From an uncultured Candidatus Saccharibacteria bacterium (GTDB lineage: Bacteria; Patescibacteriota; Doudnabacteria; UBA920), in contig CAZBAS010000005.1 of the NCBI GenBank assembly GCA_964490395.1, forward strand, positions 17,167 to 81,166: DNA of 64,000 nucleotides. The letters are read 5' to 3'. Numbering within the stretch: the first letter of the stretch is position 1; the number at the start of each line of letters is the position of its first letter. The position numbers and the translations under genes are program-made. The notes under the pieces were generated by a model. That model was not told where the DNA came from. It did no database searches and saw only the letters and a program-made list of their open reading frames with translations. This document shows, piece after piece, positions 16,628 through 56,991 of the stretch.

Positions 16628-17746
16628 ATGAATATTCCTAAACTCCTTTATGCCAATGGCAAAGACAGCAATGCATTGTATGTGACTGGTGTATATATTC
16701 CAGATCCATATTACTTTTTAGATTTTGGTGATAAAAAATATATTTTTCTTGACGATAGAGAAGTGGGTGTTTTTTTAGATCATAATACGAACCCTGCCAT
16801 CGAGGTTGTAAATGTAGATGCCTATTTAGCAGAAGCACGTACAATGGCGGATACAGAGCAAATTATGTACAAGCTCGGTCGTATTATTCTTCGCGAATAC
16901 TCGGTTGCTCATGCTTTGGTGCCCCCAAATTTTCCTGTGGGCCTCGCGGATTATTTGCGCGCAGGTGGTATACATTTGGTTGTCCAACATCCATTGTATT
17001 CAGCTCGCTTACAAAAACAACAGCATGAAATTGCACACTTGCGCCAAGTGCTGGGGGTGACCAGTAAGGCATTTGCACTTATTGAGCGCGTGTTGGGCGA
17101 ATCAATCATTGCAGAAGGCTACCTTATATATAAAGGCAAGCGCCTTACGAGCGAAACGCTCAAGGCCATGGTGGAACAGCTCTTTTTAGAACACGGTGTA
17201 AGCAACGAGGAGGGGATTATTATATCCTGTGGCCCGCACGCGGCAATACCCCACCATCAAGGTAAGGGAGAACTTCGGGCGAATGAGACCATAGTATGTG
17301 ATATTTTTCCTAGACACAAAGAAAGCGGGTATTATGCCGATATGACACGTACCTATGTGAAAGGTGTGCCTACTCCGGAAATGCGTCGTATGTATGAAGC
17401 TGTGGCAAAAGTTCAGAAAGATGCTATTGCCCGGATTGCTCCAGGAGTCGTTGGGAAAGCTGTGCATAGAGAATGCCAAAAGCAATTTATAGAGCTCGGA
17501 TTCGTTACGGCAAACGGTGAAGGGTTTACCCATGGTACGGGGCATGGAGTAGGGTTAGATGTACATGAGCTACCCAGCTTGAGCAGCTCTTATGAAGAAC
17601 CGCTTGTGGCAGGCAATGTTGTTACGGTCGAGCCTGGATTGTACTATGCAAGCCATGGCGGTGTAAGAATAGAAGATGTGGTGTTAGTAACAGAGGCTGG
17701 TGCAGAGTTGCTAAGTCAGCATCCATATACGTGGATTATAGATTAG
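16628..17746 (+). CDS. M24 family metallopeptidase (Xaa-Pro aminopeptidase / prolidase-like)
   Basis: HGTGHGVGLDVHE and VVTVEPGLY are motifs of the creatinase/prolidase fold with its metal ligands. Confidence 0.85.
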   Translation: MNIPKLLYANGKDSNALYVTGVYIPDPYYFLDFGDKKYIFLDDREVGVFLDHNTNPAIEVVNVDAYLAEARTMADTEQIMYKLGRIILREYSVAHALVPPNFPVGLADYLRAGGIHLVVQHPLYSARLQKQQHEIAHLRQVLGVTSKAFALIERVLGESIIAEGYLIYKGKRLTSETLKAMVEQLFLEHGVSNEEGIIISCGPHAAIPHHQGKGELRANETIVCDIFPRHKESGYYADMTRTYVKGVPTPEMRRMYEAVAKVQKDAIARIAPGVVGKAVHRECQKQFIELGFVTANGEGFTHGTGHGVGLDVHELPSLSSSYEEPLVAGNVVTVEPGLYYASHGGVRIEDVVLVTEAGAELLSQHPYTWIID

Positions 17747-20694: not shown

Positions 20695-20918
20695 GGGTAG
20701 CCTATTCCTGCAAAGCAATCACACCTGTGGTTGCTTTTTTGTTATTCTCTGGCTATGCGCTGTTGTTTTTGCGCATACAATGCTCCTGACTTGGGTCCTT
20801 CATTGGGGGCTAGACACTGGAAATTGTCCGCCCCAGGGGGGTCGCCTTGGGAGGAGAGATTAGAAATTTGCTTGGGGTTTGCTATACTACATACGTCAAT
20901 AATGGTTATATAAAAGTA

Positions 20919-21419
20919 ATGCCAAAGACTACTACCCGCAGCAAAAGTAAAAAAGACGTAATAGAACCAAAGCCTTCTAAGTTTAGACTTATAGCCAAAC
21001 GCTCAAGTGCTGGCCTTGGCTTGTACACCCTGGACCCTATCAAAAAGGGTGAAAAAATAATCCAATACGGCGGATACAAAATAACGAATGAAGAAGCAGA
21101 TAGGCAAGGGGGGAAGTATTTATTCGAAATCATAGACAGTAAATTCACTATAGACGGTACGCCGCGGTGGAATATTGCACGGTACGCAAATCATAGCTGC
21201 AAGCCAAATAGTGAGGCAGTATGGTACGGCCAAAATGTGTGGATTTGTTCCAAGAAAAACCTACAGCCCGGGGATGAAATTACCTACAATTACGGCAAAG
21301 TATATTTTAACGATATTATCGGCGGCGAGAAGCATTGCATGTGCGCCGTGCATCATCCTAAAAAGGGGTACCTCGGCAAGCTAACAGATGCAGAGATAAA
21401 GAAATATGGTAAAAAATAA
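20919..21419 (+). CDS. SET-domain protein (putative protein-lysine methyltransferase)
   Basis: GLGLYTL, ARYANHSCKPN and ITYNYG motifs plus a post-SET CMCAVHH; the track start 20847 is TTG, and the ATG at 20919 (MPKTTT) is more likely. Confidence 0.75.
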   Translation: MPKTTTRSKSKKDVIEPKPSKFRLIAKRSSAGLGLYTLDPIKKGEKIIQYGGYKITNEEADRQGGKYLFEIIDSKFTIDGTPRWNIARYANHSCKPNSEAVWYGQNVWICSKKNLQPGDEITYNYGKVYFNDIIGGEKHCMCAVHHPKKGYLGKLTDAEIKKYGKK

Positions 21420-35770: not shown

Positions 35771-36997
35771 ATGAATTTCGGTTTTGTAAGTCAACATGGT
35801 CTTGGAAGTTTGCAGCAAGAAGTTATTGAGCGTAAAGGAATTGGGCATCCGGACACCCTAACTGACGCGTTAGCTGAACGTATGTCGGCTCACTACGCCC
35901 AGTACACATTGAAGCATTACGGAGTTATTTTGCACCATAATTTTGACAAGTTACACATACTTGGCGGTGCAACAGAGCTAGATTTTGGCGGTGGTAGGCT
36001 GATACGCCCCATCAGAGTTATTATAAACGGTAGAGCGTCTGCAAGCTTCGCCGGTGAACAACTGCCTGTCCAGTACATTCTGGGCGATGCAGCACGGTCA
36101 TTCTTTCAGGAGCGTTTTCCTGGATTGATTGACCCGGCTCGCGACCTTGAATTTCACTGGCTGGTCAGTACTTCCAGTAGCCCAGGCAGAACTAAGCGGA
36201 CTACTGGGGCGAGAGCATACATGTTTAATCCTCGGACAGTCGCCGAAGTGAAAGGTTACGACGGTCCCTTGGTCAACAACGATACTTCCATGGGGTGCGG
36301 CTACGCGCCGTATTCTATTCTGGAAGCAGCGGTGTTGGGTCTGGAGAGGGATTTGAACAGCAGTGTCCGGAAGGATGAATTCCCATGGCTTGGTACCGAC
36401 ATTAAAGTCATGGCCGTGCGGCAAGATGATCTCATTTCCATTACGGTGTGCTTGCCGCAAATAGCAAGTAAAGTGGCAAGTGAACGCGCGTACCAAGAAA
36501 ATTTGGCTACGTTGGACCGGCATATCAGGAGACAGCTTGCCCGGCTACTTCAAGGCGCGCCGTTCGAACTGGGGTATAACACCCGCGACAACAGGCGTAC
36601 AGGCGATTACTATCTTACTGTCACAGGCACTGCCCTTGAGTCTGGCGATGAAGGAGTAGTGGGTCGCGGTAATCGCATCAACGGTCTTATTACACCATTC
36701 CGACCGATGAACTTGGAAGGGGTGTGTGGTAAGAATCCACTCTACCATACGGGAAAGTTATATAACATAGTGGCGCAGCGAATCGCTGAGCGTATTCACC
36801 GCGAAACTGGCGCGTACTGCGAAGCGTACTTAGTGGGCCAAAGTGGACAAGCGTTGCTTGACCCGTGGTCTGCAACTATACGCAGCGCAGATACTAACTT
36901 GGATGCAGCAACTGCCCAAGCGTGGGCAGTTGAAGAAATACAACAAATTCCTGCTATAACCCAAGCGTTGGTGAAGCAGGAATTGACGTTATGGTAA
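35771..36997 (+). CDS. Archaeal-type S-adenosylmethionine synthetase (methionine adenosyltransferase, MAT)
   Basis: ERKGIGHPD, ILHHNFD, NNDTSMGCGYAP, DIKVM and YYLTVTGTALESGDEGVVGRGNRINGLITPFRPMNLEGVCGKNP...HTGKLYN are collinear with the archaeal MAT family; SD gaggagg upstream. Confidence 0.85.
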   Translation: MNFGFVSQHGLGSLQQEVIERKGIGHPDTLTDALAERMSAHYAQYTLKHYGVILHHNFDKLHILGGATELDFGGGRLIRPIRVIINGRASASFAGEQLPVQYILGDAARSFFQERFPGLIDPARDLEFHWLVSTSSSPGRTKRTTGARAYMFNPRTVAEVKGYDGPLVNNDTSMGCGYAPYSILEAAVLGLERDLNSSVRKDEFPWLGTDIKVMAVRQDDLISITVCLPQIASKVASERAYQENLATLDRHIRRQLARLLQGAPFELGYNTRDNRRTGDYYLTVTGTALESGDEGVVGRGNRINGLITPFRPMNLEGVCGKNPLYHTGKLYNIVAQRIAERIHRETGAYCEAYLVGQSGQALLDPWSATIRSADTNLDAATAQAWAVEEIQQIPAITQALVKQELTLW

Positions 36998-40760: not shown

Positions 40761-42866
40761 ATGGCCTACCAAAATTACGAGAAAAATGAGAGTAAGTTGT
40801 CTCACCATAAGCAGTTTAAGAAGGAGTTAAAACCTCCGCTCCTTACGCTTAATATGACAACCTATTCTTGGATAAATGACCGCATGCCTGAAATGTTATG
40901 GGCGGTTTTAGTCATTGGGAATATAGAAAGAGAAATTGCCTTAAAATTTTTCAGAACTATTGCCGAATTTGTACATAAGAATCCTGACTGTTCAGATGTA
41001 ACACTTACTGGTATTAGCAAATTTCATGAAGAAAAGAAAAAGCAATTTATTCAACTTGCCACAAGCTGGTCAGAGGAAGTAAAAAATGTCTTAAAGCCTT
41101 TGATGTGGCTTGAGCAGCTACCAGCAAAAGAAGTATGGAAGGAATTGCTAGGAGAACCTGCAAGGAAGGATGAAGATTTTAATAAACTAGCCAATGGCGT
41201 ATCTAAGACTTACTGGCACCAATCAGAAGCAGCTACTGACTGTAGATGGATTAAATTTTTGTGCCAGATACTAGGCGGAAAAATGTCTTTTACAAAAGGT
41301 ATGGAAGATAAAGTAAAAGGTGTTTTAGAATATCCAAACTACGGAGATTTGAAAACTATAAGACCCTTTATAAGGGCATCTGAAATTATGCCATCCGACC
41401 CTGATGCGGATAAACCTTTTCATAGTGATTGGTCATTTAATTTTTGGCAACAATGTTTTGATGAAACTGGTTGTCTCCCAGAAGAGAAGGTTAGTCAGAA
41501 AATCCGAAAGAAACAAGACGATTTGTTTCAAGAAATGAAAAAATCAAGAGAGTTTAGATTAAAGCAAATAGTTGATGTAAGACATAATTTAATTGAACAC
41601 TCGATTAAGGAGTCAAAAATTTCTTCTGTAGATGCAAGACATGAAGGAAGTTTTGGTTTGGCTTTGTATGGTCTCTCTCTGTATATTGAAATTATTTTTT
41701 ATACAGTATCACTCTCGATTACGGGCAGATTGGCTATGCGAGCTTTAGTAGAGTGTTATATAACATTTAAGTATTTATTACAAAAGGAAAAAAGTGAGCC
41801 AGCCATATGGGACACTTATCGCGAGTACGGAAACGGGCAACTAAAGCTGCTTTATCTAAAACTCAAAGAAATGAACCAGAAGATAGGAAGTATTGAAATT
41901 GATACACTAGACGAATTAGCGAATGAAGATAAATCGGTTGAGTTTGTTCCTATAAATCTAGGGAATTGGGACTCTGAAAATTTGAGAAAAATGGGCGCAG
42001 AAGCTGGGCTTAAAGATTTATACGATAAATACTATAGCTATACATCTGGTTTCATGCATGGAAGCTGGGGAGCTGTCAGAGAGTCTATTTACCAAAAGTG
42101 CGTAAATCCTCTTCATAGATTTCACAGAATACCTATTTTTGATATGCCTTTAATGTCGAGTGTGGTTGACGATGCAACAGAAATTATGAATGGCATCCTA
42201 GAATGTTTGTCAGTAGCATATCCTAAATTTGATGATAGATTATTAAATTCTGATAGCCTAGACAAAACAGAGGCTAAGTCAGAAGAACTAAGCCCTCAAC
42301 CAATTAAAGCAAGTAGCATCGCTAAGGGAATACATCATAGCATTAAAAATGCGGAAAGATATGTTCAGTCAGCTAAGGAGCTGAAAACTAAAGATAAACA
42401 GGCTGCCTATCTCTTATTTCTTTATGCGCTAGAAGAAATGGGAAAAGTTCCTTTAATTTGGAATGCTTTATTTCATACAGAAACAAAGAGTGAATGGCTA
42501 AAGTGGCAAAGAAGGTTCAAAGACCATGCAGAAAAATTTTGGTTTAGTAGAGATCTTGAAGATTTTGATGAGAGGAAATTATCTAACAAAGAAAATAAGG
42601 CGGAAACAAAAATGGCAGCTAAAAAACTAGATGTATCTTACGTTAGCTTTGATGGTGAATTTCAACCCCCTGAAGATGTAGGCGAAGAGGAATTGGCGAA
42701 GATAGAGTTAAATTGCGAACGCAGAATCGCGTTCTTAAAAAGAAATCATAAATCAATTGAAGAGGACGAAAAAAGAATTGTAGAAGGTTATAAAAAAATG
42801 AAAGGTCTGACACAGGAAGAATTGAAAGAAATGATCAAGAACATGCAAAAAGAAAAATCGGATTAG
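40761..42866 (+). CDS. Large AT-rich, Lys-rich orphan protein (701 aa), unknown function
   Basis: About 35% GC against about 48% in its flanks; no family recognised; internal R-x5-H (VRHNLIEH) and a C-terminal K/E-rich coiled-coil-like tail. Confidence 0.6.
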   Translation: MAYQNYEKNESKLSHHKQFKKELKPPLLTLNMTTYSWINDRMPEMLWAVLVIGNIEREIALKFFRTIAEFVHKNPDCSDVTLTGISKFHEEKKKQFIQLATSWSEEVKNVLKPLMWLEQLPAKEVWKELLGEPARKDEDFNKLANGVSKTYWHQSEAATDCRWIKFLCQILGGKMSFTKGMEDKVKGVLEYPNYGDLKTIRPFIRASEIMPSDPDADKPFHSDWSFNFWQQCFDETGCLPEEKVSQKIRKKQDDLFQEMKKSREFRLKQIVDVRHNLIEHSIKESKISSVDARHEGSFGLALYGLSLYIEIIFYTVSLSITGRLAMRALVECYITFKYLLQKEKSEPAIWDTYREYGNGQLKLLYLKLKEMNQKIGSIEIDTLDELANEDKSVEFVPINLGNWDSENLRKMGAEAGLKDLYDKYYSYTSGFMHGSWGAVRESIYQKCVNPLHRFHRIPIFDMPLMSSVVDDATEIMNGILECLSVAYPKFDDRLLNSDSLDKTEAKSEELSPQPIKASSIAKGIHHSIKNAERYVQSAKELKTKDKQAAYLLFLYALEEMGKVPLIWNALFHTETKSEWLKWQRRFKDHAEKFWFSRDLEDFDERKLSNKENKAETKMAAKKLDVSYVSFDGEFQPPEDVGEEELAKIELNCERRIAFLKRNHKSIEEDEKRIVEGYKKMKGLTQEELKEMIKNMQKEKSD

Positions 42867-54004: not shown

Positions 54005-54457
54005 TTACCTTAACCAAGCAGAAATGTAGCTGCCGTATTCTTGCCGTTTGTGGTCGGGGAGGCGCGCGAAGCGACCAATGGTTTTTCTACAGCTGGGCGT
54101 ACCGCAGAGGCACTGCATTTGCCAGTCGCTGTTTTCCGTCATGTCGTAATCCCAGGTAAGCTCTTCGCCCGCCTGAATATCACGCATGGTCACGATGGTA
54201 AATAAATTTTGGATACCGCAGTTCGGCTCGCACGAGTGATTGAGCAGTTCGGCTATGCCGGTGCTTTCTCGGTAGAGGTGGGGCGCACATTGTACTACGT
54301 GGTCGGCAATAAACTTATTTGGTAGTTGGCTGGCGGATTCTGCTTCATGGAAGCTACCGTCAAAATTCGCTAGTTTTTCACCCTGCTTAATAACTGTCTT
54401 GGCAAAGACTCCCAAGCCTTTGCCCGGGGTTATTTTTATAATTAGATTTCCGTGCAT
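54005..54457 (-). CDS. SET-domain protein (second copy)
   Basis: GKGLGVFA, NHSCEPNC, ELTWDYD and a post-SET CLCGTPSCR. Confidence 0.75.
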   Translation of the reverse strand: MHGNLIIKITPGKGLGVFAKTVIKQGEKLANFDGSFHEAESASQLPNKFIADHVVQCAPHLYRESTGIAELLNHSCEPNCGIQNLFTIVTMRDIQAGEELTWDYDMTENSDWQMQCLCGTPSCRKTIGRFARLPDHKRQEYGSYISAWLR

Positions 54458-54463
54458 ACATTC

Positions 54464-54865
54464 TTATTTACGGATTAAAACTTTCATAGTGCTACTTTTT
54501 GCTTGAAAGAAGGTATCGCAAAACCTTTTTGCGGTGTGGGGGTTGTAGAGTCTGCAAGAGAAGATGTCTATATATACATTGCCATTGGCTTCTACAAAAT
54601 GACCGGTAAGTGACGAGGTTTCTATGAGCTGCATCATGGAGTAGCCGTAGAGTTCTGGATACCTACCAAGTTTAACTAGGGTAGTCGGGCCGAACTTGTT
54701 CACTTTGAGTAGCTTGCAAAGTATGTTGGTAAACGCTGTGAGTTTCTTTTTGCTCTTAATGGTATTACTGTTGCAGTTTCTTAAGTCTATATGGGTGGAG
54801 AGTCCCCAGCTGTTAGCTTTTTGGAATTCTGCCTTAAGTTTTGAATAGGGGAGGAGTTTTTGCAT
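54464..54865 (-). CDS. S-adenosylmethionine decarboxylase-like protein (SpeH / class 1b AdoMetDC fold)
   Basis: GLSTHIDLRNC (the G.H..D...C motif) and LIETSSLTGHFVEANGNVYIDIFSCR align to the SpeH autoprocessing region, but with TS where ES is usual; 6 nt upstream of the SET gene. Confidence 0.6.
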   Translation of the reverse strand: MQKLLPYSKLKAEFQKANSWGLSTHIDLRNCNSNTIKSKKKLTAFTNILCKLLKVNKFGPTTLVKLGRYPELYGYSMMQLIETSSLTGHFVEANGNVYIDIFSCRLYNPHTAKRFCDTFFQAKSSTMKVLIRK

Positions 54866-54978
54866 ACAGGTTTGCGTCGTACTTAATTATGTGTAGCAGT
54901 GTAGTGTTTTTTTATGCACGGTGTCCAAGAGGTATAGCCATTTTTGCATGTTTTAAACTATTAGTTTAATATACGTAT

Positions 54979-55803
54979 ATGCTTCTTACTCCAAAAACGA
55001 CCCTTTCCGAAAAGATATTGTTCGTGCTGGGCAAACATCCTAACAGTACGGCGGAATTTATTTTAAAAGTTGTAGGACCTTCGAATTATAGTATCCAGGC
55101 TGTATACAAAGAACTCAGAACCATGCAAAAGTTTGGGGCAGTGGTCAAGGTGGGGCATTCTTTTAGCTTGCGGGTATCATATGTACTGGCTTTGTCAGAA
55201 ATGTTTGACGCTTTTCAAACAATATCTCTAAGTAGTGGGTTGTCGAGCGATATCTTATCTGGGCCGAGTAAACAAGTGTGGAGACTAAACAGTTTAATCA
55301 AAGTAGTAAACTTTTGGGATTACTTACTGGTTGGGTTGGTGAGTGTTTCAAAATCAAAACAGCTGTTTGGATACACGAAGCACGCCTGGTACCATCTTGC
55401 ACAGCCCGAGGCAGAAGACCGTTACCTCCAGGCTATCCGCAGAGTCGGGGGCAAGATTTTCTTAACACTTGGTAGCAAGCAGCCGCTAGATGTGTGGTCT
55501 GAGAAATTTTGGCCAAAAGATGTTGTGGAGTTTGGATATGGAAAATCGTTTCTAGAGTCCGATGAAGACCTGGAGTTTGATGTTATTGATGACTATATAG
55601 TAACCGTAAAAAAAGACAAAAAAGTCTCTCAAATAGTTGAGGGCGTGTACAGCTCAGTTGCTCACCCGCGAGACTTTAGTGGTTTAGCGGAAATATTTCT
55701 ACGCCCAGCCAGTGTAAAAGTTGTGCTCGAGAAAAACCCTAAAAAAGCGATGGTTCTTAGGAAAAAGTTTACGAGGTTCTTCGGACTCAGAGTCTCTTAC
55801 TAG
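54979..55803 (+). CDS. Hypothetical protein (possible N-terminal wHTH)
   Basis: 274 aa; no family recognised. Confidence 0.45.
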   Translation: MLLTPKTTLSEKILFVLGKHPNSTAEFILKVVGPSNYSIQAVYKELRTMQKFGAVVKVGHSFSLRVSYVLALSEMFDAFQTISLSSGLSSDILSGPSKQVWRLNSLIKVVNFWDYLLVGLVSVSKSKQLFGYTKHAWYHLAQPEAEDRYLQAIRRVGGKIFLTLGSKQPLDVWSEKFWPKDVVEFGYGKSFLESDEDLEFDVIDDYIVTVKKDKKVSQIVEGVYSSVAHPRDFSGLAEIFLRPASVKVVLEKNPKKAMVLRKKFTRFFGLRVSY

Positions 55804-56325: not shown

Positions 56326-56991
56326 ATGGTATCTAAATATGTATTTGCTGGGTTGTTAGCTCTCGTTTTAATTGGGGGTACAGTGTACGCGTCGCAGGGG
56401 GTAGGGCCTGGTGGTTTGCTCGAAGGGGCAAAGCACTTAAAAGATAAGGTGGTATCGGTGGCGGCTGTGAAAGAGTCTGTTCAGGATGATAAAACAGGAA
56501 GTAGTGAGACTGGTCCTACAACTGTTGCAGCTACAACCACGACTGAAGTGAACGATAATGTTCAAGAAGAACGTGTCCGTAGCGGGGATGATAAGAATAC
56601 AAGTGTAGAAAAGGAAAGTAAGGACGATGCAGACGAAGAGGGGGATGAAGATGGAGATGAAGATGAGGGAGGGCATCGTTCAACTGGTACCGCAGTAGTT
56701 ACTCAACCGGTACAAACTCCTACCCCAACCCCTGCTCCTGCGCCCGCACCAAAACCACAAGGGTACACTATGGCGCAGGTGCAAGCGGCAAATTCAGCCA
56801 GTAAGTGTTGGTCTGTTGTATCTGGCAATGTATATGATTTAACAAGCTGGATAGGTCAGCACCCGGGTGGGGCGAGTGCAATAAAAGCGATGTGCGGTGT
56901 TGACGCTACTTCAGCATTTCAAGGTCAACATGGTGGTCAAGCAAGACCCGCAAGCGAACTCGCTGGTTTTAAAATTGGTGTGTTGTTATAG
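56326..56991 (+). CDS. Secreted or membrane-anchored cytochrome b5-like heme-binding domain protein
   Basis: N-terminal signal anchor; acidic DEEGDEDGDEDEGG and TPTPTPAPAPAPKP linkers; C-terminal YTMAQVQAANS...CWSVVSGNVYDLTSWIGQHPGG. Confidence 0.65.
   Translation: MVSKYVFAGLLALVLIGGTVYASQGVGPGGLLEGAKHLKDKVVSVAAVKESVQDDKTGSSETGPTTVAATTTTEVNDNVQEERVRSGDDKNTSVEKESKDDADEEGDEDGDEDEGGHRSTGTAVVTQPVQTPTPTPAPAPAPKPQGYTMAQVQAANSASKCWSVVSGNVYDLTSWIGQHPGGASAIKAMCGVDATSAFQGQHGGQARPASELAGFKIGVLL

Follow-up and report, generated by a model that had tools for sequence, protein, structure and literature searches.

A SpeDC-type decarboxylase gene joined to a small SET-domain gene in a Patescibacteriota genome

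The DNA considered here, called the window below, is a stretch of 64,000 nucleotides from an uncultured Candidatus Saccharibacteria bacterium (GTDB lineage Bacteria; Patescibacteriota; Doudnabacteria; UBA920). It corresponds to positions 17,167 to 81,166 of the forward strand of contig CAZBAS010000005.1 (assembly GCA_964490395.1). Its minus strand carries an operon of two genes, the first encoding a small protein of the S-adenosylmethionine (SAM) decarboxylase (AdoMetDC) fold and the second a small SET-domain protein; a gene for a putative regulator is transcribed away from them. The first protein belongs by sequence to the SpeDC clade. SpeDC proteins are described by Li, Liang, Phillips & Michael (J Biol Chem 2023; PMC10407285) as AdoMetDC homologues neofunctionalised to pyruvoyl-dependent L-ornithine decarboxylases (ODCs). 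As a way of organising SpeDC genes, the linkage to a SET gene, with a regulator peculiar to this clade, recurs and appears not to have been described before. The features of the locus, in window coordinates, are the following.

54464..54865, minus strand: SpeDC-type AdoMetDC-fold proenzyme, 133 aa, ATG start (open reading frame and Pfam AdoMet_dc)
54005..54457, minus strand: small SET-domain (class V) SAM-dependent methyltransferase, 150 aa, ATG start (open reading frame and Pfam SET)
54458..54463, minus strand: 6-nt spacer from the decarboxylase stop codon to the SET start codon (read from the sequence)
54614..54619, minus strand: codons of T83 and S84, the predicted autoprocessing site (alignment)
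54979..55803, plus strand: divergent gene for a 274-aa TrmB-like putative regulator (model with a winged helix-turn-helix and an alpha/beta domain)
54953..54969, no strand: perfect palindrome, candidate operator (sequence scan and conservation)
54866..54978, no strand: divergent intergenic region of 113 bp between the decarboxylase gene and the 274-aa gene

A preliminary description of the locus had called an AdoMetDC-fold protein and a SET protein separated by 6 nt, and on these points it stands. The decarboxylase reading frame matches Pfam AdoMet_dc (PF02675) with an E-value of 4.7e-15 and 56.3 bits (cut-off 25), and the SET reading frame matches Pfam SET (PF00856) with an E-value of 3e-14 and 53.7 bits (cut-off 22.4), both above the curated cut-offs; the gap is that at 54458-54463. 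The two genes form one operon, with the decarboxylase gene first.

Recurrence of the decarboxylase-SET linkage

In every relative of the window clade with a readable context (L002, L004, L172 and L005/L006 in our labelling), the decarboxylase and SET genes stand together in that order. A gene for 270-276 aa lies divergently upstream of the pair wherever that side of the contig can be read (L002, L172, L005/L006). The relatives are 60-86% identical to the window genes, with minima of 65% for the decarboxylase and about 71-72% for SET, and their flanking genes differ. Since the genes for the regulator, the decarboxylase, and the SET protein are kept together at this degree of identity amid differing flanks, the three travel as a unit.

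Outside this clade the two domains are found joined in a single polypeptide, in both orders and in several lineages that are not related to one another. SET-SpeDC fusions occur in P0146 and P0161 (the latter Pfam-confirmed), in the loci L021, L065 and L084 (Leptospiraceae/Leptospirales), and in L033 (Spirochaetales). The reverse order, decarboxylase-SET, is seen in P0128 and in P0031 of Nitrosopumilales, for which precomputed Pfam matches show both domains. Operon-like pairs also recur: L166 has a similar decarboxylase and SET gene pair, and in L092 the genes for SpeDC (954-1394) and SET (1391-1864) overlap as ATGA. The SET gene of L092 is followed, at 1889-2233, by a gene for a 114-aa EamA/DMT-like membrane protein (Pfam E-value 7.5e-5, under the gathering score), which may be an exporter of a cationic product. 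In a neighbour-joining tree, SET-linked decarboxylases fall at no fewer than six separate places. Absence of the pairing from related genomes, the outcome that would have counted against the preliminary description, is thus not what is found, and chance adjacency is excluded by the conservation in relatives and by the fusions.

The linkage extends to a second lineage of the AdoMetDC fold, represented by L166 (1069-1443) and by residues 1-134 of P0128. Its site reads W-x-E-S-G...Y-x-W-(D/E)...D(I/M)(Y/H)(T/S)C, with Ser and Cys kept and Tyr at the equivalent of His68. Pfam detects no AdoMet_dc domain in the N-terminal half of P0128; BLASTP shows that half to be homologous to the L166 protein (E-value 2e-15). 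This lineage is linked to the same SET subfamily as SpeDC, by an operon in L166 and by a fusion in P0128. The SET partners form a single subfamily, with a shared C-terminal helix and 39-55% identity to the window SET protein.

The pairing was called unusual in the preliminary description, and this holds, for it is a minority arrangement, seen in about 3-5% of loci in both the SpeDC family and the SET subfamily. A SET gene is linked to the decarboxylase in 4 of the 149 relatives listed and in 4 of 80 GTDB loci; from the SET side, 3 of 80 metagenome loci have the linkage. A search of a phage collection gave a weak match only, at 24% identity, in Sinorhizobium phage phiN3. We found no mention of a link between SET and SpeDC, or between SET and polyamines, in the literature searched, nor in PMC10407285.

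What makes the locus interesting is that SpeDC, as well as another lineage of the AdoMetDC fold, is repeatedly joined to a single subfamily of small SET proteins, in bacteria and archaea alike.

The decarboxylase and its cleavage site

The region around the cleavage site of the decarboxylase reads MMQLIE-T83-S84-SLTGH89F, followed by Y98IDIFSC104. Alignment with canonical SpeD and with the AdoMetDC of Thermotoga maritima places S84 at the pyruvoyl-forming Ser, T83 at the position of the canonical Glu, and H89 and C104 at those of His68 and Cys83. The preliminary description was right that Thr precedes the pyruvoyl-forming Ser; its view of this as an anomaly, a missing Glu-Ser, does not survive, as Thr is one of the four published SpeDC diagnostic residues and, in 219 of the 227 domains of the family, stands at -1 of the Ser that is processed. 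Since nearly all relatives among the matches listed carry the motif QLIETS(x)I(S/T)GHF...YIDIFSC, Thr-Ser is the rule of the family. S84, H89, and C104 are invariant across 58 aligned members.

The diagnostic residues of SpeDC, as given in PMC10407285 (Fig. 8), are a Gln, a Thr, a Phe, and a Tyr that surround the processing Ser in the central region of the protein. All of them are present in the window protein, as Q79, T83, F90, and Y98, positioned by alignment with the SpeDC reading frame of Methanogenium cariaci JCM 10550 (L043). The two proteins are 41% identical over 120 aa without gaps (E-value 6e-40). From its organism and family, we take the L043 product to be the validated ODC WP_062398326, which Table 3 of that paper lists as ornithine-specific among the substrates tested. 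According to that paper, the characterised SpeDC proteins are without AdoMetDC activity, and OGG79367 of Ca. Kaiserbacteria is another validated member. It also reports a SpeD-SpeDC fusion that lost its ODC activity when the Ser predicted to be processed in the SpeDC domain was changed to Ala.

The distribution of the relatives agrees with this assignment. While a word-indexed homology search recovered only 4 close relatives of the decarboxylase, an exhaustive profile search gave 1244 representative relatives, 584 of them with E<=1e-10. Those in the GTDB genome scan come from Methanomicrobia, the Candidate Phyla Radiation (CPR), Spirochaetota, Nitrospirota, Atribacterota, and DPANN. These are the taxa listed for SpeDC in PMC10407285, where the homologues are estimated at >1000 and placed in CPR bacteria, Spirochaetota, Nitrospirota, DPANN, and Methanomicrobia. 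The family profile matches the Thermotoga maritima AdoMetDC in the Protein Data Bank (PDB; 1VR7 and 1TLU), and the profile was required for this, as a PDB search with the single sequence returned only spurious coiled-coil matches.

A bona fide AdoMetDC (SpeD of class 1b) was considered and rejected: the protein has no Glu-Ser site and no HTWPE with its conserved Pro, reading IETSSLTGHFVEA, and it scores 19.9 bits against the NCBIfam AdoMetDC equivalog TIGR03330, whose cut-off is 75.65. The Pfam and NCBIfam models file SpeDC under AdoMetDC and do not separate the clade; the only source label seen on a relative is 'S-adenosylmethionine/arginine decarboxylase-like enzyme'.

Because the protein has the SpeDC signature, because Thr stands at -1 throughout the family, and because of the identity to a validated enzyme, the protein is expected to process itself between T83 and S84, and its substrate is likely to be ornithine, not SAM. 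The suggestion in the preliminary description that this homologue might act on arginine or ornithine is in this way well supported by sequence; its other suggestion, that the protein may not self-process, is unlikely, given that members of the SpeDC clade do so and are active, and that the Ser-to-Ala change kills ODC activity. On cleavage of the 15.3-kDa proenzyme, residues 1-83 would become the beta chain (computed mass ~9.5 kDa) and residues 84-133 the pyruvoyl-alpha chain (~5.7 kDa). A protein left inactive, or merely SAM-binding, by the replacement of Glu with Thr would fit the departure from the canonical Glu-Ser and the unusual loops of the window clade, but we set this reading aside as very improbable, since Thr-Ser is the norm in a family with validated, processed, active ODCs in which Ser, His, and Cys are invariant. 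Taken alone, then, the decarboxylase is an ordinary further member of SpeDC, and the known family explains the oddity of its cleavage site.

The loops near the site set the window clade apart. In alignment, LGRYPELYG replaces the FGxDERVAG of typical SpeDC proteins, and HFVEANGN replaces HFANxTN.

The SET protein and its possible role

The SET protein has the canonical motifs N73-H-S-C-E-P-N-C80 and E99-L-T-W-D-Y-D105 and a post-SET CxCx4C. All three motifs are conserved across 45 relatives, in which the cysteines of the post-SET zinc cluster (C76, C116, C118, and C123) are invariant. The AlphaFold2 model has a mean pLDDT (predicted local distance difference test) of 95.8, and its fold search gave 347 PDB matches with E<=1e-3, the top 50 listed all being SET-domain proteins. 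The closest solved relative by sequence is BurB (PDB 9l4t/9l4v), with an E-value of 1.9e-12 and 35% identity over 120 aligned residues (30-35%). Foldseek also puts BurB first by E-value; the histone lysine methyltransferases (KMTs) ASH1L, NSD1, and MLL have TM-scores of 0.65-0.72, equal to or above that of BurB.

BurB is a SET enzyme that S-methylates free L-methionine, which it binds via main-chain atoms, and it is about 35% identical to MSMT (PMC7496086, PMC12542666). In the pathway of Burkholderia and Streptomyces to which these proteins belong, a decarboxylase follows the SET methyltransferase (PMC7496086, PMC12542666). Because of this pathway, it is clear that small bacterial SET proteins can use small molecules and that there is a precedent for a methyltransferase acting together with a decarboxylase.

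Most members of the SET subfamily have no decarboxylase adjacent to them. All-against-all clustering of the neighbours in the 80 metagenome loci found none that is recurrent, and a recurrent ~430-aa gene upstream of SET, suspected from gene lengths, was not supported by it. At L010 (3713-5465), a SET homologue 57% identical to the window protein (P0016) starts 1 nt after the gene for a 428-aa FAD amine oxidase (Pfam Amino_oxidase/DAO); no decarboxylase is present at L010. The window has a second SET gene, at 20847-21419 on the plus strand (190 aa, Pfam SET E-value 3.4e-20), of another subfamily. Its product is 26% identical to the first SET protein, lacks CxCx4C, and has a long basic N-terminus; a gene for the RsgA GTPase lies downstream of it on the opposite strand.

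The company that SpeDC genes keep bears on the role of the SET protein. Polyamine genes (speE, speD, hss, casdh) are usual neighbours in this family, though not obligatory ones. A spermidine synthase gene, speE, is adjacent in 14 of 80 SpeDC loci; the usual order is speD-speDC-speE, as in Atribacterota and in part of the Spirochaetota. Each of four SET fusions in spirochaete loci is preceded by a canonical speD (ESH...HTWPE), with no speE within the 5-kb flanks, and has a decarboxylase domain that shares 50% identity with Methanogenium cariaci SpeDC. Contigs JAVJNR010000004.1 and JABTUL010000002.1 are examples with speD and SET-speDC. Since these fusions follow speD and their relatives have speD-speDC-speE, SET fills the operon slot of speE. 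Besides SET, the fusion partners of SpeDC are SpeD, spermidine synthase (in the DPANN-type archaeal loci L062 4614-5861, L046 1075-2436, and L038 4947-5873, and in P0132), and a GNAT acetyltransferase (P0176, Pfam-confirmed). P0134 and P0256, taken by eye for GNAT fusions, were without Pfam confirmation, so that P0176 is the only confirmed case. Spermidine synthase and GNAT enzymes are transferases acting on primary amines, as the SET protein would be in the role proposed below.

It is tempting to propose that the SET protein is an enzyme of the polyamine pathway, standing in the place of spermidine synthase beside SpeD and SpeDC and alkylating the diamine that the decarboxylase makes; we regard this as possible, with more doubt than confidence. 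The alkylation would most plausibly be a methyl transfer from SAM, giving N-methylated putrescine. The locus would then be a three-gene module, in which a TrmB-like winged-helix regulator is divergent from the two-gene operon. The proenzyme would cleave itself between T83 and S84, with S84 becoming the pyruvoyl cofactor and H89 and C104 assisting, and the mature enzyme would act on a basic amino acid and not on SAM, most probably forming putrescine from L-ornithine by decarboxylation. The SET protein would use SAM to methylate the primary amine of the decarboxylation product, forming an N-methylated diamine, probably N-methylputrescine, because putrescine is in effect a lysine side chain set free, and this side chain is what SET enzymes normally methylate. 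The reverse order, in which the amino acid is methylated and then decarboxylated, is equally allowed by the data. The whole chain, from self-cleavage through ornithine decarboxylation to methylation of the resulting amine by SET, is a serious candidate that still falls somewhat short of probable.

Several observations weigh against this proposal. The two loops near the cleavage site are altered in the window clade, and therefore the substrate may have shifted away from ornithine. The modelled SET fold is matched equally well by histone KMTs and by BurB; since the TM-scores of ASH1L, NSD1, and MLL equal that of BurB, the fold does not separate protein from small-molecule substrates. That the SET genes are mostly solitary points to a general substrate that is commonly available, possibly a protein. 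The N-terminal SET domains of two fusions from one lineage, P0199 and P0154, are without the NHSC, DY, and post-SET Cys motifs and look like pseudo-enzymes; they are nevertheless joined to a typical SpeDC, an argument that the two can be associated for structural or regulatory reasons and not for catalysis. Searches of the 64-kb window and of the available contig flanks of the relatives turned up no homologue of speE or speD, and nothing related to polyamines lies within 6 kb of the window pair. A bacterial N-methylputrescine pathway is not reported in the literature that we searched for bacterial N-methylated polyamines.

Some of these points favour a different explanation, in which the SET protein is an ordinary protein-lysine methyltransferase, or a SAM-sensing or scaffolding partner, and its link to SpeDC is regulatory or structural, for instance in tuning putrescine synthesis. 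We consider this unlikely but by no means negligible. Possible targets of methylation are a nucleoid or DNA-binding protein, the TrmB-like protein next door, and the decarboxylase. The protein has the complete set of canonical KMT motifs, the Foldseek scores of the histone enzymes are at least those of BurB, most members of the subfamily are solitary in variable contexts, and the retention of pseudo-SET domains on SpeDC suggests a non-catalytic role. Moreover, the best structural match of the conserved divergent neighbour, TrmBL2, is an archaeal chromatin protein. On the other hand, gene fusions usually join enzymes of consecutive steps, and the other fusion partners of SpeDC (SpeD, SpeE, and GNAT) are all metabolic. 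SET occupies the operon place of speE in spirochaetes, and its closest characterised relative uses a free amino acid.

A second alternative takes the likeness to BurB at face value. A BurB/MSMT-like SET protein would make S-methylmethionine, and the AdoMetDC-fold protein would decarboxylate it to the amine of dimethylsulfoniopropionate (DMSP-amine); these would be the first two steps of the bacterial methylation route to DMSP, with the pyruvoyl enzyme replacing BurI/SMMDC. BurB is the best PDB match both by sequence and by Foldseek E-value, an H-x-x-Q strand and a C-terminal 'LP' segment are common to it and the window SET protein, and a SET methyltransferase does work with a decarboxylase in Burkholderia and Streptomyces. 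SAM, the ancestral substrate of the AdoMetDC fold, is itself a sulfonium amino acid. The SET homologue located directly after an amine oxidase gene at L010 is also what the step from DMSP-amine to the aldehyde would need. This alternative is, however, improbable. The decarboxylase carries the full ODC-diagnostic signature, and the characterised members of its clade act, of the substrates tested, on ornithine alone (PMC10407285). The SET-linked decarboxylases are for the most part typical SpeDC proteins, 50% identical to that of Methanogenium cariaci and encoded beside speD. No aminotransferase, amine oxidase, or aldehyde dehydrogenase gene was found near the window pair (none within about 6 kb), and, as BurB holds methionine through main-chain atoms, sequence cannot confirm substrate specificity.

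The extreme version of the polyamine proposal would have the SET protein recruited as an aminopropyl transferase, a SET-fold spermidine synthase that joins decarboxylated SAM and putrescine to give spermidine. It would account for the four spirochaete loci with speD and a SET-SpeDC fusion but no speE in the flanks, where relatives have speD-speDC-speE. It would likewise suit the linkage of SET to putrescine-making SpeDC and to the second AdoMetDC-fold lineage, which keeps two positions of canonical HTWPE, the Trp and the acidic one. Nonetheless, it is barely credible: the SET protein has fully canonical methyltransferase motifs, the DY tyrosine included, speE may simply sit elsewhere in the spirochaete genomes with fusions, and there is no speD near the window pair. 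The geometry of the SET active site offers the methyl group, not C-gamma, to the substrate channel, and we know of no SET-fold aminopropyltransferase.

SET enzymes have been treated almost exclusively as protein-lysine methyltransferases, and BurB and MSMT are the only small-molecule exceptions that we found. If the window protein and its relatives do act on putrescine or a related amine, SET chemistry would reach the polyamines, a new branch of prokaryotic polyamine metabolism would be opened, and there would be a testable function for the many orphan SET genes found in CPR, DPANN, and spirochaete genomes. To our knowledge, a SET-fold polyamine N-methyltransferase would be the first of its kind and a bacterial or archaeal route to methylated polyamines. 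If, instead, the SET protein regulates or scaffolds the decarboxylase, it would represent a new mode of control over putrescine synthesis.

The third gene of the unit, for the divergent 274-aa protein, has no Pfam or NCBIfam match. Only five homologues were found, and each of those with a readable context is divergent to a SET-containing operon; at L171 the SET gene is only a faint 89-aa SET match. In the AlphaFold2 model, which is of moderate confidence (pLDDT 72), a winged helix-turn-helix at the N-terminus is followed by an alpha/beta domain at the C-terminus. Its best PDB match is the archaeal TrmBL2 (5bpd), with an E-value of 2.6e-9 and a TM-score of only 0.35, and the next are PLD-fold proteins, which match the C-terminal domain. 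By this model, the protein may be a TrmB-like regulator of the divergent operon that also regulates itself.

A perfect palindrome, TTAAACTA-T-TAGTTTAA, which is a TTAAACTATTAGTTTAA palindrome, is located at 54953-54969, about 10 nt before the ATG of the 274-aa gene. It is kept in L172 and L005 although the intergenic regions have otherwise diverged, and it is a likely candidate for the operator. Alignment of the three intergenic regions shows a second conserved element, TTAATTAT, near the decarboxylase start. Promoter and terminator scans of the region did no better than on shuffled sequence, giving a weak sigma-70-like match on the minus strand at 54927-54898.

Other genes of the window deserve brief mention. 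An archaeal-type methionine adenosyltransferase is encoded at 35771-36997 on the plus strand (NCBIfam PRK04439 models, E-value about 1e-95, below the cut-offs). In its other genes, among them those for GGDEF-EAL, histidine kinase, and ABC-F proteins, the window has a bacterial look. At 504-1910, on the minus strand, lies a gene for a beta-CASP / aCPSF1-like metallo-beta-lactamase ribonuclease, whose best NCBIfam match is 'type VII CRISPR-associated Cas14' at 425 bits, far under the 800-bit cut-off. The plus strand also encodes a 701-aa protein with a C-terminal AbiV abortive-infection domain (40761-42866; TIGR04498, E-value 1.8e-10, above the cut-off) and a protein that combines a cytochrome b5 domain, a membrane anchor at the N-terminus, and a long low-complexity linker, acidic and rich in Pro and Thr (56326-56991). 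One tRNA and no rRNA were found in the 64 kb.

Comparison with known systems

The class 1b AdoMetDCs (SpeD, or SpeH), with Thermotoga maritima 1TLU and 1VR7 as their structural representatives, share with the window decarboxylase the Pfam family, the fold, and the equivalents of Ser, His68, and Cys83. They differ from it in having the Glu-Ser-His site and HTWPE with its conserved Pro.

For the SET protein, a first comparison is with chlorovirus vSET and Methanosarcina Go1-SET, which are small protein-lysine methyltransferases of about 120-170 aa with canonical motifs. Like them, the window protein is minimal in size, and its modelled fold matches the SET domains of histone KMTs; we know of no linkage to a decarboxylase for these proteins and their kin. 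The 274-aa protein may resemble the TrmB family, and TrmBL2 (5bpd) in particular, in its model, with a predicted N-terminal winged helix and PLD-like C-terminal domain, and in its position beside a palindrome, but it has no detectable sequence similarity to that family.

The BurB/MSMT and BurI/SMMDC systems (PMC7496086, PMC12542666) have in common with the window operon a small bacterial SET protein, the pairing of a methyltransferase with a decarboxylase, and a shared post-SET region. The window SET protein has NHSC where BurB has LHSC, and its partner is a pyruvoyl enzyme of the AdoMetDC fold from an ornithine decarboxylase clade.

The SpeDC proteins, as described in PMC10407285, are like the window decarboxylase in fold, size, the Ser/His/Cys residues, the four diagnostic residues, and taxonomic spread. 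The window clade departs from that description in its loops LGRYPELYG and HFVEANGN, in the absence of adjoining speE, speD, hss, and casdh genes, and in having the decarboxylase gene in an operon with a SET methyltransferase gene and divergent to a clade-specific regulator. The arrangements known for SpeDC, according to the same text, are speD-speDC-speE operons and the SpeD-SpeDC fusions of Desulfotignum phosphitoxidans and Ca. Omnitrophica; our searches recovered such operons or fusions in P0202, P0262, L017, L024, and the Atribacterota loci. In all of these, as at the window locus, SpeDC is physically joined to an enzyme that uses or complements its product, or that would do so if the SET protein acts as proposed. 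What differs is the partner, which here and in the fusions of Leptospiraceae is a SET domain.

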